A stretch of DNA of 64,000 nucleotides from a phage: the sequence record OZ413487.1; one strand, written 5' to 3'. Positions 21,708-27,114 of the stretch are shown piece after piece (within the stretch, counting starts at the first letter, position 1; every line of letters starts with the position of its first letter). The position numbers and the translations under genes are program-made. Below the pieces are notes generated by a model. That model saw only the letters and a program-made list of their open reading frames with translations, did not search any database and was not told the DNA's origin.

Positions 21708-22120
21708 AGAGTTGTCGAGGGGGAGGCCCCCAATCGTTGACCAGATAGATAGGAGTTAAAATCATGGCTATTGTTACCGCTGGCTATCTTCAAAGATGCG
21801 GAAGCAAAACAACGCCGGATCTCAATACATGAGATCATCAACCTTAACGCTGGAGGCACACCATACCGCCCAGGACCTGGCCGTGAGATGGACAATACGC
21901 TAGCGATCCTGAAGATACGCCGTAAACGGTCCTCCCTTACTCTGGACTCATTACACACAATGCAGCCTCCGTTCCAGGTGACCGGGAAACGGATCGCCAG
22001 GTCCTGGACAAAGGCCAATGATCGGACCGTATAAATAAAAGTGTTTTGGTACTGATTTTGGGGTTGACTTGTTCGGCCCCTTTTGCTATTCTTATTAAAC
22101 GGGCGGCACTTGGGAACAGG

Positions 22121-22143
22121 GGGAGACAATCACCGGGCCTGCC
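22121..22143 (-). repeat. conserved 23-nt motif, copy 3 (inverted orientation)
   Basis: Reverse complement GGCAGGCCCGGTGATTGTCTCCC matches copy at 14681 at about 21/23 positions. Confidence 0.6.
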
Positions 22144-22167
22144 TGTCATATAAGAACTATAAAAACC

Positions 22168-22196
22168 GTTGACATCTGCCATGGGGTGGGGTAACA
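22168..22196 (+). promoter_or_regulatory. sigma70-like promoter (TTGACA-17-TAACAT)
   Basis: Precedes gene at 22252. Confidence 0.5.
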
Positions 22197-22251
22197 TTTA
22201 TCTTGAAGGGGCAAAAGTGCCCACACAACAACCAAGAGAGAGGAAAACACT

Positions 22252-22524
22252 ATGTCAAACTGGATTAATCAAGAAGTCGAATCACGTTTTAATGCTATTT
22301 GGGATCTCATCGAAAAAGAAGACGGCACATCAAGCCCCTACCTCAACAATTTGGAATTCCATTTTGTGGAAGCGATGAACGCAGAACATGATCACGAAGG
22401 TGGCGCGGATGAGTTCGCTAAAGGTTATGGCTTTAACAATGCCAACGAAATGATCGAGGCGGTAGTACTCCAGGCTGAGGAAGATTATCAACTAAAAACG
22501 CTTGAATTCTGCCGCCGCAAGTAA
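22252..22524 (+). CDS. hypothetical protein
   Basis: ORF track; GAGAGGAAAA RBS. Confidence 0.5.
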   Translation: MSNWINQEVESRFNAIWDLIEKEDGTSSPYLNNLEFHFVEAMNAEHDHEGGADEFAKGYGFNNANEMIEAVVLQAEEDYQLKTLEFCRRK

Positions 22525-22584
22525 TAAGATAATGACACGGGCCAAAAGGCCCACTAATCAGAACCGCACAAAGAGGTAAACATC

Positions 22585-22848
22585 ATGAAACGTCTTGATC
22601 AGCTCAAATTAGTTCAATATATGGCTTATCGTGTTCTTGAAGTCCAGAAAGGTAGCAAAAAAGAGGTTTGCGAGAAAGCTTATAAGATCTTCACTCGCAA
22701 AAAAGATGACTGGATGCTACGCCAGACTAAAAAGGCTGACATCTTGGGGTACCTGGAAGAAGAGATCCGCCTTGAAGAGCAAGAAGAGATCCGCCGTAGT
22801 GAGGCAGATTATCAGGCAGCTTGGGAAAACTGGATGAGCAACAAATAA
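22585..22848 (+). CDS. hypothetical protein
   Basis: ORF track; AAAGAGG RBS; last + strand gene before the noncoding zone. Confidence 0.5.
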   Translation: MKRLDQLKLVQYMAYRVLEVQKGSKKEVCEKAYKIFTRKKDDWMLRQTKKADILGYLEEEIRLEEQEEIRRSEADYQAAWENWMSNK

Positions 22849-22867
22849 TACAACAAGGTGCACGGTC

Positions 22868-22893
22868 AGGGGCTTAAAGCCCCTTTCTTTTTG
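22868..22893 (+). terminator. intrinsic terminator ending the + strand gene block
   Basis: AGGGGC-TTAAA-GCCCCT followed by TTCTTTTTG. Confidence 0.7.
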
Positions 22894-23502
22894 TCTCCTC
22901 TTTTCCTACCACAAATGGCCCCGCCTGGCAAATGGAATAATCAACAAGCCAGCAATTAACCCCACTGTACAAACATACATATAAAATAACTATTGCATAA
23001 TTTTTCATTGTGTGGTAGCAGTGCCATTTTTACACGTTTTTCCTTCCAAAATTGCACGTAATGCAGCATTTGCACAAAATTTAACCTGATGCATATCTTC
23101 AATAGCTTGTCAACAACTAAAAATCTTTATAAGTCATACACTTACATAACTACAAAAACGTTTTCTACGTGAAAAATCGAGTATAACTATAGCCGCCAGA
23201 TCTCAGAATTTACGTACGCTCGCCATTCTATAGCCTGCTAAGCATTTATTCCAACCATAGAATAACGGAATAGTCAATACCTGCATAAAATAATTATTCG
23301 TGTAAACTGCATAACATAAATCGGCCCAGGTGTCAACATTTTTCGTAAACAGTCTGGAATTGTCACGTTAGGTTACCATAAGCAGAGAAATCTTTAGTCG
23401 TCTAATGTTTACTGTACATTACTATACTGACTGGAATCATTAGATGACTAAGAGAAAGATAAGAAATAATTAATAATGTAATTATTTTACCTGTAACAAT
23501 AA

Positions 23503-23760
23503 GGCAACTATGCAAACGAATGGCATGGCGCGACGGAGTCGCGACATAATATAAAAGCAGTAACCATCACCCCCGTGATAGTTTGTCTGCAAACTATTAA
23601 TCAGATCATAGTTGCCTTGTATTTAGTTAATCATGACATGACAAGCAAGGCAACTATAGATCTGCTAATAGTTGCCCTGCTTTTATATTATGTCATGCTA
23701 ATTATAATCAGTGCGATTATTGTCATGTATAATTATTGTCATGCAAACGAATGGCATGGC
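23503..23760. repeat. GGCAACTAT motif x4 (two inverted pairs) bracketed by 19-nt direct repeat TGCAAACGAATGGCATGGC
   Basis: Direct repeats at 23511-23529 and 23742-23760; 12-bp inverted repeat ATAGTTGCCTTG / CAAGGCAACTAT at 23608-23619 and 23646-23657. Confidence 0.6.
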
Positions 23761-23767
23761 TGATTAT

Positions 23768-23862
23768 CGGTGTGTAAACAGTCAATCATGTAAATGGTTA
23801 GCATGTGAACAATCAGGAATGTAAACAATCCAGTGTGTAAACTAATAGGTGTGTAAAAGTGT
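23768..23862. repeat. TGTAAAC iteron cluster (5 copies in ~95 bp)
   Basis: GTGTGTAAAC x2-3, ATGTAAA, AATGTAAAC at 11-25 nt spacing. Confidence 0.55.
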
Positions 23863-24134
23863 CATGTTGTGTCAGTTAGGTCACATTATGTCAGACAAGT
23901 TTTTCTCCTCTTTGTCAAGTGCTGCATGAAAAATTTACAAGCTTGTATGGTAGCATTTTTGCGGCCCTGTTTACATTCAGTAATGTATGTATAATCCTTG
24001 TTGTGTGGGCGTTTAGACGTCTAGACGGTTGGAAGTCCACAGGTCAATATCTAATCTATCGGCTGCTAACTATATCCCACACAAATAGTAAGAAATATGA
24101 TTGTTATATGCGTAAACTGTAACTCATGTTATCA

Positions 24135-24505
24135 ATCCCTGTATGGATCGCCAGTGGTGCGCATAATAGGTATTATGTTAAATTGCCCGTAATGATAACA
24201 GTTCTCACAATGATAGGTATTCTCATTCATCCACACAAAATAGGTTGCAAATGTTGTGCCACTGTGTGAACGGCCTGGCCTATTAATTTCTCTCACTGCC
24301 TCGATATTTGAGAATTGTTATCCCTGTATGGATCGCCAGTGGTGCGCATAATAGGTATTATGTTAAATTGCCCGTAATGATAACAGTTCTCACAATGATA
24401 GGTATTCTCATTCATCCACACAAAATAGGTTGCAAATGTTGTGCCACTGTGTGAACGGCCTGGCCTATTAATTTCTCTCACTGCCTCGATATTTGAGAAT
24501 TGTTA
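24135..24505. repeat. tandem duplication, two ~185-bp units
   Basis: Unit beginning ATCCCTGTATGGATCGCCAGTGGTGCGCATAATAGG... occurs twice head-to-tail, essentially identical. Confidence 0.85.
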
Positions 24506-25564
24506 TAAGAATGAGAAGTATTCCCATTCCGTCCGCCTGGCAGCACTCCTGTAGGTCCTGCAAGGACTCTAGCTGAAAGCTAGACCCTTCGGGCCTCCCT
24601 GTAGGTCAGGTCAAAATCGTGGTAGAATTGGGCCTGTTCAGATATTTCTGGCTGACTCTTCAGGTCTGTGTGGGAAAAGCCAACCTCTCCGGCGGGGCAG
24701 GGGGTCATGACGGGAAAATTGCAGGTCAATTAAAAAATTTACGTGGTGTATGAAGCGCTCTTCAGGTAAGGCATGTATTATGGGATGAAACCCTCTTCAG
24801 GCAATGATATTTGTGGGTGTGATATTTGCTGGAAAGCCAGATATGACGGGACTCCCGGCGGGGATGGGGTAGTACAGACAGGGAAAATATGAGAATGTAG
24901 TTGGGGAAATTGATCAGACAGGTAGAGTATGGAATATGTTACAAGTATGTTAAATATGGAGGTTGAATATCTGTAGGATTTGTGTGTAAAATCAAAGACT
25001 TAAGGGGTGTTGTGGTATTTTCTATAAATAATTCAAGTTTAATAGGCAATATTTGTCTCTATCCGCTTTGTGTGGTAAACAGATTCAGATTAGATTGGTT
25101 TACAAGTGTATACATAATATACAAATTAAAGATACAAGAAACCCCCCTCCCCCTTCGGCTACCATTCACCTTTTCCTCTGACTGGTACTTAAACACTTAT
25201 TCAGACTCTTCAGGTTATCACCCATATATCATATGGCAGTGACTGGTGTCCTCCGGCCCCTCTTTCGTCACCCGTCCGCTTCGCCATGCTAATGCCATAG
25301 CCAATGGTTCGGTTGTTCACTCTGTTCACTCAGGTGTATCTCCATACCCCTTCAAACCGAAGAGAACAGAAAACCCGAATTACTCGGTAAAAGAAAAGAG
25401 AAGAACTTAATTTTATCAGGATAGGCAAGAATGTCAAGGCATGACTGCTCACTAAACAAGCAAACAGTCATGTGTGGAAGGTAAGTGATTGTGGTGGTGG
25501 GAAATTTAGTTGAAAGATGTGTTATAGGTGCTCCCAGCACTTTAGCCGGGTAGCTAATTGTGTG

Positions 25565-25846
25565 TCAGTCCAGTGGTTCATCACCTACTTCACTGAAATC
25601 AATGTTCATGGTCTCCTCCCAACCATCAATCTCAGCACCAGAGTAGAGATCTTTAGGACTTACTCCCAAAGCATCAGCAACAGAGTCCATATTTAACACC
25701 TCTGGCAGGTATGATTCATCGAATTCAAGGTAAATCAGGCCACGAGTGTTGTCAGCTCCACCAAATATTTCTATCTTCATGAAATCTCCTCTGGGAATGA
25801 GAGTGTGAACAGGGTTTATACGTTCCAATGCGCTGGAATTATGCAC
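25565..25846 (-). CDS. hypothetical acidic protein
   Basis: ORF track; last gene of the - strand block. Confidence 0.4.
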   Translation of the reverse strand: MHNSSALERINPVHTLIPRGDFMKIEIFGGADNTRGLIYLEFDESYLPEVLNMDSVADALGVSPKDLYSGAEIDGWEETMNIDFSEVGDEPLD

Positions 25847-26473
25847 GTTTGCCTCTTCAGGCCATGCTTCAGCATGAGGAACCTGTGTGGGCTCGGTGCT
25901 TCATAGTCTACCACCCCTGAACTCTTCGTGCTCAGGCATAATAGAGAACCAGATATCTACGATGTCTTCCCACGTCAGGTCATCAGCCTCAGGATCTACC
26001 TGGAGCGAAGATGAAGAATCTTCAGAATCGAAGTTTTCCTCTTGCACTGGCTCAGTCAAGGGACATATAGTCACTCCTTTGGATGTCTCTTCAGATGCAT
26101 GTGTGTTTATCATGTTCCACCCGTGAGTATTCCGGCAACAGCTGCTATGGACGTAATGATCATCAGGATCACCACTAAAACTTCGGACAATGTTCTCATT
26201 GTGTACTCCATATTCTACAAACTATGTGTGGATACTATCACTGGATCGGTAATGTGTCAACAGAAACGCCGCGAGGGTTTGGTTAAAATCCGAGCGTATG
26301 GTGATTTGGGTCAAAACGGACGTGCGTTCTCGCTACGCTCGAAATATGGAGTTGTTTGTAGGGAGCTCTTAAACGCTCTGTAATGAAATTAACTACCCAA
26401 GGTATGCAATCGTGCACCAGACAAAGAAAAGGACGCCACAGAGCGTCCTAGGTGTCTTAAATTTGATATTTTG

Positions 26474-26785
26474 CTATACCCACGAGGGCTTATCAAGGTT
26501 GGAGTAGCTGAAAGGTGTCAAAAGGTGACTGTCAAAATCTCTCAAACTATCCAAATCTTTTTCCTCGTCCTGACACCATCTGTGCCTACATTTGTTGTTG
26601 TAGTGCATGGAATGCATAGCGTTCTGCAACTTAACAGGCACAAGTGATTCAGGAGTAGATAGTATTGTTGGGTATGCCAGAACCACCTCAAACAGTGGAA
26701 ACACATCGAAACTAAAGTCTACCTCTGCAGAGGTTGATGGCATATAGGAGTATTTAGCCGCCTTTGTAGACATAATCCACCTCAC
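26474..26785 (-). CDS. hypothetical protein
   Basis: ORF track. Confidence 0.4.
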   Translation of the reverse strand: MRWIMSTKAAKYSYMPSTSAEVDFSFDVFPLFEVVLAYPTILSTPESLVPVKLQNAMHSMHYNNKCRHRWCQDEEKDLDSLRDFDSHLLTPFSYSNLDKPSWV

Positions 26786-27114
26786 ACAGGTTTGATAATA
26801 CCTTCACCGAATAGCTCTTCGTATCTAATCTTGTCCGGATCCCACTCCTGTATAATTTCGAAGACAATATCCAACCCAGGAACAATCACTTCTCCAGTGT
26901 CAAGCTTAGCAAGAACAAAACCGGAAGGTTGAATGGTTTCCCAGTTACGGCGATCAGAATAAAATACTTCGAAAATATCACCAACCTCAATCCGTTTCTG
27001 TTGCTCAAGATGCTGAAGGTTCTCTTTCATACGGATGCAGCGTATTTTTCGTGCAGGCCATAGACCACCTGCATCACGTTCATTCAATTCTTTTACAGTG
27101 ATCGGTATACCCAT
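26782..27114 (-). CDS. hypothetical protein
   Basis: ORF track; 4-nt overlap with downstream gene. Confidence 0.45.
   Translation of the reverse strand: MGIPITVKELNERDAGGLWPARKIRCIRMKENLQHLEQQKRIEVGDIFEVFYSDRRNWETIQPSGFVLAKLDTGEVIVPGLDIVFEIIQEWDPDKIRYEELFGEGIIKPV

Follow-up and report, generated by a model that had tools for sequence, protein, structure and literature searches.

One counterpart of the locus studied here comes from phage T7, whose sequence we examined directly. About 12 CCTAAAG units with a period of 13 bp lie at positions 175–340 of T7, in unique DNA that begins where the 160-bp direct terminal repeat (DTR) ends; the first unit is 15 bp inward of this boundary. Looser copies of CCTAAAG precede the right repeat. 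The names SRL and SRR for these arrays reportedly go back to Dunn and Studier. A hairpin end, formed at an inverted repeat beside the T7 junction, is said to have been proposed by Chung, Nardone and Hinkle. A staggered nick followed by fill-in is the classical textbook scheme for ends of the T7 type. A function for the T7 flanking arrays was not found in the literature searched.

Short repeated motifs are also clustered around the terminase cut in the pac site of P1 and in pacL/pacR of SPP1, where packaging is headful, the cuts are imprecise and the genomes are permuted. T5 has a repeat-rich injection-stop region. In the cos site of lambda, whose mechanism is the best characterized of this type, the small-subunit sites R3, R2 and R1 lie beside a nick site of two-fold symmetry and position the nuclease.

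In Vequintavirus, non-permuted DTRs of 458–459 bp have been reported in three papers. EdH4 and HdK5 have terminal redundancies of 458 bp, and LL12 has a PhageTerm-derived, non-permuted repeat of 459 bp located "between two convergent transcripts". The Klebsiella phage KPP-1 (Mydovirus) has an author-defined DTR of 514 bp and was placed by PhageTerm in the "T7 type" class. Gotham, LL12 and KPP-1 are called lytic or virulent in their respective papers. No cis-acting packaging signal for the rV5-like group was described in the literature searched. Here we analyzed a repeat cluster at 23503–23862 of a 64,000-nt stretch of phage DNA (sequence record OZ413487.1; hereafter, the window), which proved to be real, non-random and conserved across its genus.

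Results

Location and gene context

The window comes from an rV5-like coliphage (Vequintavirus), and 121 phage records match its positions 22800–25000 at roughly 90–97% identity. About 18 GenBank records numbered MG0656xx and labelled "Campylobacter phage" (e.g. L011) match the E. coli Vequintavirus region at 76–97% identity, and are probably coliphage sequences that were mislabelled or came in as contaminants. The one of them that we opened, MG065644 (A147), is marked UNVERIFIED.

The cluster sits between two convergent gene arms. Rightward genes end at 22848 and leftward genes start at about 26474, which leaves a non-coding gap of approximately 3.5 kb. The GC content of the gap goes down to 35%, and that of 23400–23900 is 25–39%. 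A consensus scan identified a terminator-like site near the last gene of each arm (22868–22884 on the + strand and 26449–26430 on the − strand) and no + strand promoter at 22900–24100. Large ORFs identified in the window were replication and nucleotide-metabolism genes only, with the helicase and polymerase genes on the same arm as the cluster; the terminase genes are outside the window. Pfam scanning of seven neighbouring small proteins, including ones annotated as "FtsK" or "transcriptional regulator" in some records, returned no domain, and the annotated relatives list only hypothetical proteins as neighbours. In the stretch 25437–25375 of the − strand, a sigma-70-type promoter close to consensus (TTGACA-16-TAAAAT, TG upstream, 11/12) faces the DTR. 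A terminator-like hairpin (25387–25375) comes within about 20 nt after its expected start, and the arrangement may represent a very short RNA or an attenuator.

No tRNA was found in the window, and an Rfam scan of 22000–27000 at E ≤ 1 gave no matches. Relatives have the ORF at 23575–23763 in a frameshifted or truncated form, and it matched no protein family, so its coding reading was rejected. With this ORF broken in relatives and the Rfam scan empty, neither a coding nor an RNA explanation of the cluster was retained.

Repeat elements of the cluster

The preliminary description had reported a perfect 12-bp inverted repeat with a 26-nt spacer, flanked by further copies of a 9-mer. Our repeat search confirmed the inverted repeat, ATAGTTGCCTTG/CAAGGCAACTAT, at 23608–23619 and 23646–23657. 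The flanking copies of the 9-mer, GGCAACTAT, are likewise present and bring the cluster total to four: 23503 (+), 23608 (−), 23649 (+) and 23668 (−), in the order + − + −. A search for the 9-mer elsewhere, as had been suggested, found it once outside the cluster in the 64 kb. The five copies in 64 kb compare with a shuffle expectation of 0.49, and five or more were seen in 0 of 100 shuffles. The outlying copy, A1 (AAGGCAACTAT, 23501–23511, + strand), overlaps the start of the direct repeat B1 and is kept in 19 of the 19 genomes of our panel of relatives, including FV3.

The direct repeat, ATGCAAACGAATGGCATGGC, occurs on the + strand at 23510–23529 (B1) and 23741–23760 (B2); it was confirmed, with a length of 20 nt and not 19. 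B1 is found in all panel genomes and forms the left bracket of a palindrome, and B2 was identified by repeat search and in the panel. A small GC hairpin, CGCGAC-GGA-GTCGCG (23529–23543), was read from the sequence and is predicted in the folds.

Between the two direct repeats lies a nested imperfect palindrome of 152 bp (23543–23694), recognized by repeat search and by DNA folding. It had been missed before, as had its perfect 18-bp inverted repeat, the KGTCA run at 23860–23893 and the genome terminus 32 bp downstream of the cluster. The 18-bp inverted repeat forms the outer arms C1 and C2 (23543–23560/23677–23694), which are an A-tract and a T-tract. Inside them are a side hairpin (23562–23583) and inner arms of about 30 bp (23590–23619/23646–23676). 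The inner arms carry the GGCAACTAT copies A2′ (23608–23616), A3 (23649–23657) and A4′ (23668–23676), and hold two AACTAT-N10-ATAGTT sites. As single-stranded DNA, the 152-bp palindrome folds with a dG of −58.7/−59.3 kcal/mol (z −8.4/−9.1). GATC is not avoided in the genome and occurs twice in the palindrome, so that control through Dam sites, as in P1 pac, was left unsupported.

The stretch between C2 and B2 (23695–23740, + strand) is a variable module, which here holds two copies of ATTATTGTCATG (23716 and 23732) and is replaced by other modules in relatives. After B2 comes the iteron array (23771–23858, + strand). Five TGTAAAC iterons had been claimed; the array is there, but exact copies number only three (23773, 23820 and 23836). 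With TGTAAAT, TGTGAAC and TGTAAAA included, six TGTRAA units are found on the same strand, starting at 23773, 23789, 23804, 23820, 23836 and 23852 with a period of 15–16 bp. Six TGTRAA in 90 bp compares with a maximum of 3 among 300 dinucleotide shuffles. The iterons are followed by KGTCA units about 10 bp apart (23859–23893, + strand; starts at 23860, 23870, 23879 and 23889). The last KGTCA supplies the 5′ half of the cut motif at the terminus, TGTCA^GAC (^, boundary).

Conservation among relatives

Conservation was scored in the panel of 19 related genomes, and the wider record set comprised about 121. Order, orientation and position of the motifs A (the four copies of GGCAACTAT), B (the two direct repeats) and C (the 18-bp pair) are the same in 18 panel genomes out of 19, FV3 being the exception; a lack of conservation in related genomes, which the preliminary description had named as evidence against it, was thus not observed. 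The palindrome core was found in 118 of the approximately 121 records, and its arms are invariant across the panel, with insertions at the apex or between C2 and B2 only. A147, TP5 and phita32 (L011, L016 and L019), which belong to one subgroup, have a 33-bp insertion, AACTCAGGCATAGCCTTCGTCTCGAGGATGTTA, at the apex with both arms intact, and the LL12 match to the palindrome region is likewise about 33 bp longer.

In FV3, motifs A and B are each present once and C is missing, so that the palindrome and three of the four GGCAACTAT copies are lacking. In its sequence (NC_019517/JQ031132, locus L020, 1854–2024) the two 20-nt direct repeats are cleanly fused, and in lacking the palindrome FV3 is alone among about 120 genomes. 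This layout is the expected product of recombination between B1 and B2. The palindrome is therefore not essential, unless the FV3 sequence is an artefact; the loss reflects a deletion in nature, or else an error of sequencing or cloning at a long palindrome.

The iterons vary in number and keep their arrangement. The genus consensus core, GYRAAYHRT, is present in 1–9 copies per genome, all on the + strand and spaced 15–16 bp apart or by multiples of this. The background of the core is 0.22 per kb per strand, and none occurs on the other strand of the array. In each of the 15 genomes in which the array was scored, orientation is uniform and the phasing is kept; the lowest counts are one core in bov11CS3 and two in RudolfGeigy. 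GTCW units follow the iterons across the panel, at −4, −14, −24, −34, −43, −52 and −61 from the terminus. Both iterons and GTCW units are confined to the strand that points at the cut, and across the panel B2 starts 94–248 bp away from the DTR boundary.

The non-coding DNA of 23000–23690 is about 92% conserved throughout within the genus. Conservation therefore does not single out the repeats, which show no excess constraint at the present depth. Its part at 23000–23500 is AT-rich, free of ORFs and 86–100% conserved in the genus, and a 22-nt imperfect inverted repeat was seen here (23394–23415/23430–23451). An extra gene of 139 aa lies between the last + strand gene and the terminus flank in 11 panel loci (e.g. 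Murica gp151, TP5 and JES2013). It is absent from the window (22848–23450, compared with 478–897 of L014), nimi and slur16. Most of the relatives that have this gene carry a fifth GGCAACTAT copy within it.

Searches farther afield gave little. A pattern search of IMG/VR for GGCAACTAT-N8-12-ATAGTTGCC returned 10 hits, about what chance would give by a rough estimate, and the other motifs were found on two known Vequintavirus contigs only. A protein-anchored IMG/VR search gave only 2 loci. We also looked for the Seunavirus/Certrevirus terminus through a conserved 101-aa neighbour; these genera are not syntenic there, and the four loci obtained were of no use.

The terminal repeat and its boundaries

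The two annotated DTR copies of Gotham are identical and map to 23894–24537 of the window, and the published coordinates of LL12, which were determined independently, place both boundaries at the same nucleotides. All three papers on Vequintavirus termini put the repeat in the non-coding gap between the gene arms. The repeat cluster ends 32 bp before the near boundary, between 23893 and 23894, which reads ...ATTATGTCA^GACAAGTTTTTCTCC (...TGTCA^GACAAG). The terminal repeat at 23894–24537 is thus a predicted one for the phage of the window, assigned by homology. Several assemblies begin in or beside the cluster and DTR region.

The DTR is 457–460 bp long in all panel relatives, with the window as the exception. 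Here the equivalent region measures 644 bp, not 459 bp, because of a perfect tandem duplication of 185 bp at 24135–24506. This duplication (2.0 copies, 100% identity) has its junction in one piece in 0 of 72 matching phage records, and is either a private expansion of the DTR or an assembly artefact.

At the far boundary (24538–24545, − strand), the bottom strand reads ...GCTGCCA^GGCGGACG into the DTR. Read 5′ to 3′ into the DTR, the near boundary is TGTCA^GAC and the far one TGCCA^GGC, its symmetric partner; both are invariant in the 19 genomes. Together they define the motif TGYCA^GRC, which has two-fold symmetry, with six of eight positions identical and in register. The octamer TGYCAGRC occurs 14 times in the window and is unspecific alone, so that extra recognition would be needed, for which the one-sided phased arrays are the obvious candidate.

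The DTR of KPP-1 is homologous to, and co-linear with, that of the rV5 type, and islands of conservation lie at both of its ends. Its boundaries are TGCTA^GAC and TGCTA^AAC (TGCTA^RAC), identical at seven of eight positions. Position 4 of the motif differs between the genera at both ends together, being C in the rV5-like phages and T in KPP-1. Ends that are alike within each genus and have changed together fit a single nuclease nicking opposite strands. The equivalent flank of KPP-1 cannot be aligned with that of the window, yet it has similar element types. About 100 bp from the end there is a ATAGTTAC-N5-GTAACTAT palindrome, the terminus octamer TATTGCTA occurs in several copies and, by eye only, there is an apparent long-range 18-bp inverted repeat.

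Different repeats occur in the far flank of the DTR (24538–25220). They comprise two copies of CCTGTAGGTC (24548 and 24598), four of the GACTCTTCAGGT type (24654, 24756, 24791 and 25204) and two of CCGGCGGGGNNGGGG (24689 and 24855). The patch at 24560–24620 is swapped for another module in many relatives.

Discussion

The locus resembles the T7/T3 junction in having a short, exact, non-permuted DTR and, tens of bp from its boundary, a short-period array of the heptamer type in one orientation. In the window, a fixed non-permuted DTR, with termini assigned by homology, is abutted by unique DNA that carries such an array. There are also clear differences. T7 is an unrelated podovirus of 40 kb and the present phages are myoviruses of 137 kb, and the motif sequences are unrelated. 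The T7 period is 13 bp, whereas the rV5-like array has one of 15–16 bp plus a second array of about 10 bp. A shared symmetric octamer is missing from the T7 boundaries, and no palindrome bracketed by direct repeats was seen in the T7 segments examined. T7 maturation is coupled to the RNA polymerase of the phage itself, an enzyme that is not known from rV5-like phages.

With lambda cos the locus shares a nick motif of two-fold symmetry on opposite strands and repeated sites on one side only, at which binding would be expected here by analogy. However, lambda DNA is nicked at points 12 nt from each other, which gives cohesive ends, while the rV5-like boundaries are 459 bp apart and would need fill-in; the virion DNA carries the repeat in duplicate. 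Neither an IHF site nor an R-like sequence was identified in the rV5-like flank. The symmetric motif is thus of the lambda kind, but nicks about 10–19 nt apart with cohesive ends are not found, so that the element is most like a T7-type junction and not a cos site. The clustering of short repeats around the cut recalls the pac sites of P1 and SPP1, but the rV5-like ends are exact.

The preliminary description had likened the layout to partition sites, terminase recognition sites or operator arrays, and its title had spoken of a centromere or origin. Of these, the context favours terminase recognition alone: a DTR boundary exact to the nucleotide lies beside the cluster, and every phased repeat of the cluster faces the cut site. 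The other options were left without support. Since the repeats are in unique DNA that ends at the DTR boundary, they are most likely part of a packaging signal. With moderate confidence, we propose that the cluster is the terminase recognition and positioning flank of the concatemer junction. The DTR had already been published; the flanking architecture and the symmetric boundary motif were not found in the literature searched. Location, boundaries, array phasing and orientation, conservation and the symmetric motif come from this analysis or from the cited papers. We infer terminase binding, the nick chemistry and the role of the palindrome.

Under this proposal, replicated rV5-like DNA would be cut into unit genomes with a 459-bp DTR, one boundary being that between 23893 and 23894. 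The terminase, probably through its small subunit, would assemble on the one-orientation GYRAAYHRT iterons and GTCW units, and this assembly would place the nuclease for a top-strand nick at TGTCA^GAC. The same enzyme would nick the bottom strand at TGCCA^GGC, 459 bp away, and strand-displacement extension of both 3′ ends (fill-in of the 5′ overhangs) would duplicate the repeat. The palindrome may be an accessory element, acting as a bidirectional terminator, as a set of protein-binding sites (the two AACTAT-N10-ATAGTT) or as both.

Several points weigh against the packaging reading. Iteron copy number is loosely constrained, down to one or two cores; the palindrome part is dispensable if FV3 is not an artefact; the repeats are no better conserved than the surrounding gap; and TGYCAGRC is frequent in the window. 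In T7, most end insertion sites are individually non-essential; only two, on either side of the inner edge of the left repeat, are exceptions, which makes the inner DTR boundary the critical spot. Headful packaging was inferred in one paper for a Vequintavirus of a phage cocktail.

The palindrome at 23543–23694 invites another reading, compatible with a packaging role of the arrays, in which it would mainly be a bidirectional intrinsic terminator between the convergent arms. We consider this possible but somewhat doubtful. The 18-bp inverted repeat would supply the A- and T-tracts that flank the hairpins, as in known terminators of this kind, and the GGCAACTAT inverted repeats would be the stems. 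A hairpin followed by a T-run was indeed found on both strands, between convergent transcripts, and the structure is stable. On the + strand, GGCAACTAT-N10-ATAGTTGCC (or a long stem of about 30 bp) is followed by CTGCTTTTATATT, and the hairpin with the T-run CTGCTTTTAT can be read directly from the letters. On the − strand, the side hairpin (23583–23562) precedes the same T-rich sequence and was flagged by the scan. Two annotators had independently called a + strand terminator at the equivalent of 23642–23682. However, each arm already has its own strong terminator (22868–22884, +; 26449–26430, −), the consensus scan found no + strand promoter at 22900–24100, the stems are AT-rich with a + strand loop of 10 nt, and FV3 does without the palindrome. 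Termination would also leave A1, the B1/B2 bracket and the phased arrays unexplained, and the palindrome differs from such terminators in being 152 bp long, nested, 0.7–2.8 kb from the nearest genes and bracketed by 20-nt direct repeats. That arrays end exactly at the mapped terminus, with every unit facing it, is something a replication origin would not require. An origin, at which the iterons would bind a phage initiator and the AT-rich DNA and palindrome would serve unwinding or priming near the genome end, is unlikely in our view, although phased direct repeats are found beside DNA of 25–39% GC (23400–23900), the large palindrome can form a hairpin, and the arm in question also has the helicase and polymerase genes. 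The cumulative GC skew does turn at the cluster, but the turn is a maximum and arises because gene orientation switches there. No DnaA box with one mismatch or fewer occurs in the cluster, transcription converges onto the site, which is unusual for an origin, and no initiator-like domain was found among the seven neighbours; a novel initiator would escape Pfam. A partition centromere is not supported, because the phage is virulent and recognizable partition genes (parA/parB-type) were not found nearby by Pfam or in annotated relatives. The earlier suggestion of a centromere or origin thus finds no support, with no partition or initiator protein identified and no cluster of DnaA boxes.

Two further explanations are very unlikely. 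One is that the cluster controls DNA entry near the genome end, for example as a site where host or virion proteins bind and ejection pauses or the end is protected, for which the injection-stop region of T5 offers a likeness. It lies less than 400 bp from the genome end, direct and inverted repeats are dense in its non-coding DNA, and the plasticity in copy number suggests redundant binding sites; but nothing suggests two-step transfer in rV5-like phages, and the GTCW phase runs on into the cut motif, which points to the cutting enzyme. The other is that the cluster has no function, and that slippage-prone repeats and a selfish or accidental palindrome have accumulated in a long non-coding gap. 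Copy-number variation, module swapping between close relatives, the clean B1–B2 deletion in one genome and conservation no higher than that of the gap would all fit this reading. Against this, strand orientation is uniform and phasing is retained in 15 of the 15 genomes scored, the A, B and C positions are invariant in 118 of about 121 records, and the palindrome persists although long perfect palindromes are normally unstable. The flank of KPP-1, though unalignable, has the same element types.

Returning to the packaging flank, its position at the DTR boundary together with the exact cut motif makes it a candidate packaging site for transducing plasmids or genome rebooting. The boundary also gives a rational start coordinate for annotation, as most deposited genomes have been opened at arbitrary points. 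Phage collections for therapy and biocontrol of E. coli commonly include rV5-like phages, and LL12 is part of a commercial product. After T7, the locus is a second, unrelated case of a short-period array beside a short DTR. A more specific proposal, which we think rather unlikely to hold in full, is that at either DTR boundary the terminase of rV5-like and related myoviruses recognizes a nick motif of two-fold symmetry (TGYCA^GRC, or TGCTA^RAC in Mydovirus) and is guided by the dual-period array, which lies on one side only. The bracketed palindrome would be extruded as a hairpin or cruciform and would take part in duplication of the repeat. If true, a cis-acting packaging module would for the first time be defined for a large myovirus with DTRs, and it would be transferable to phagemids.
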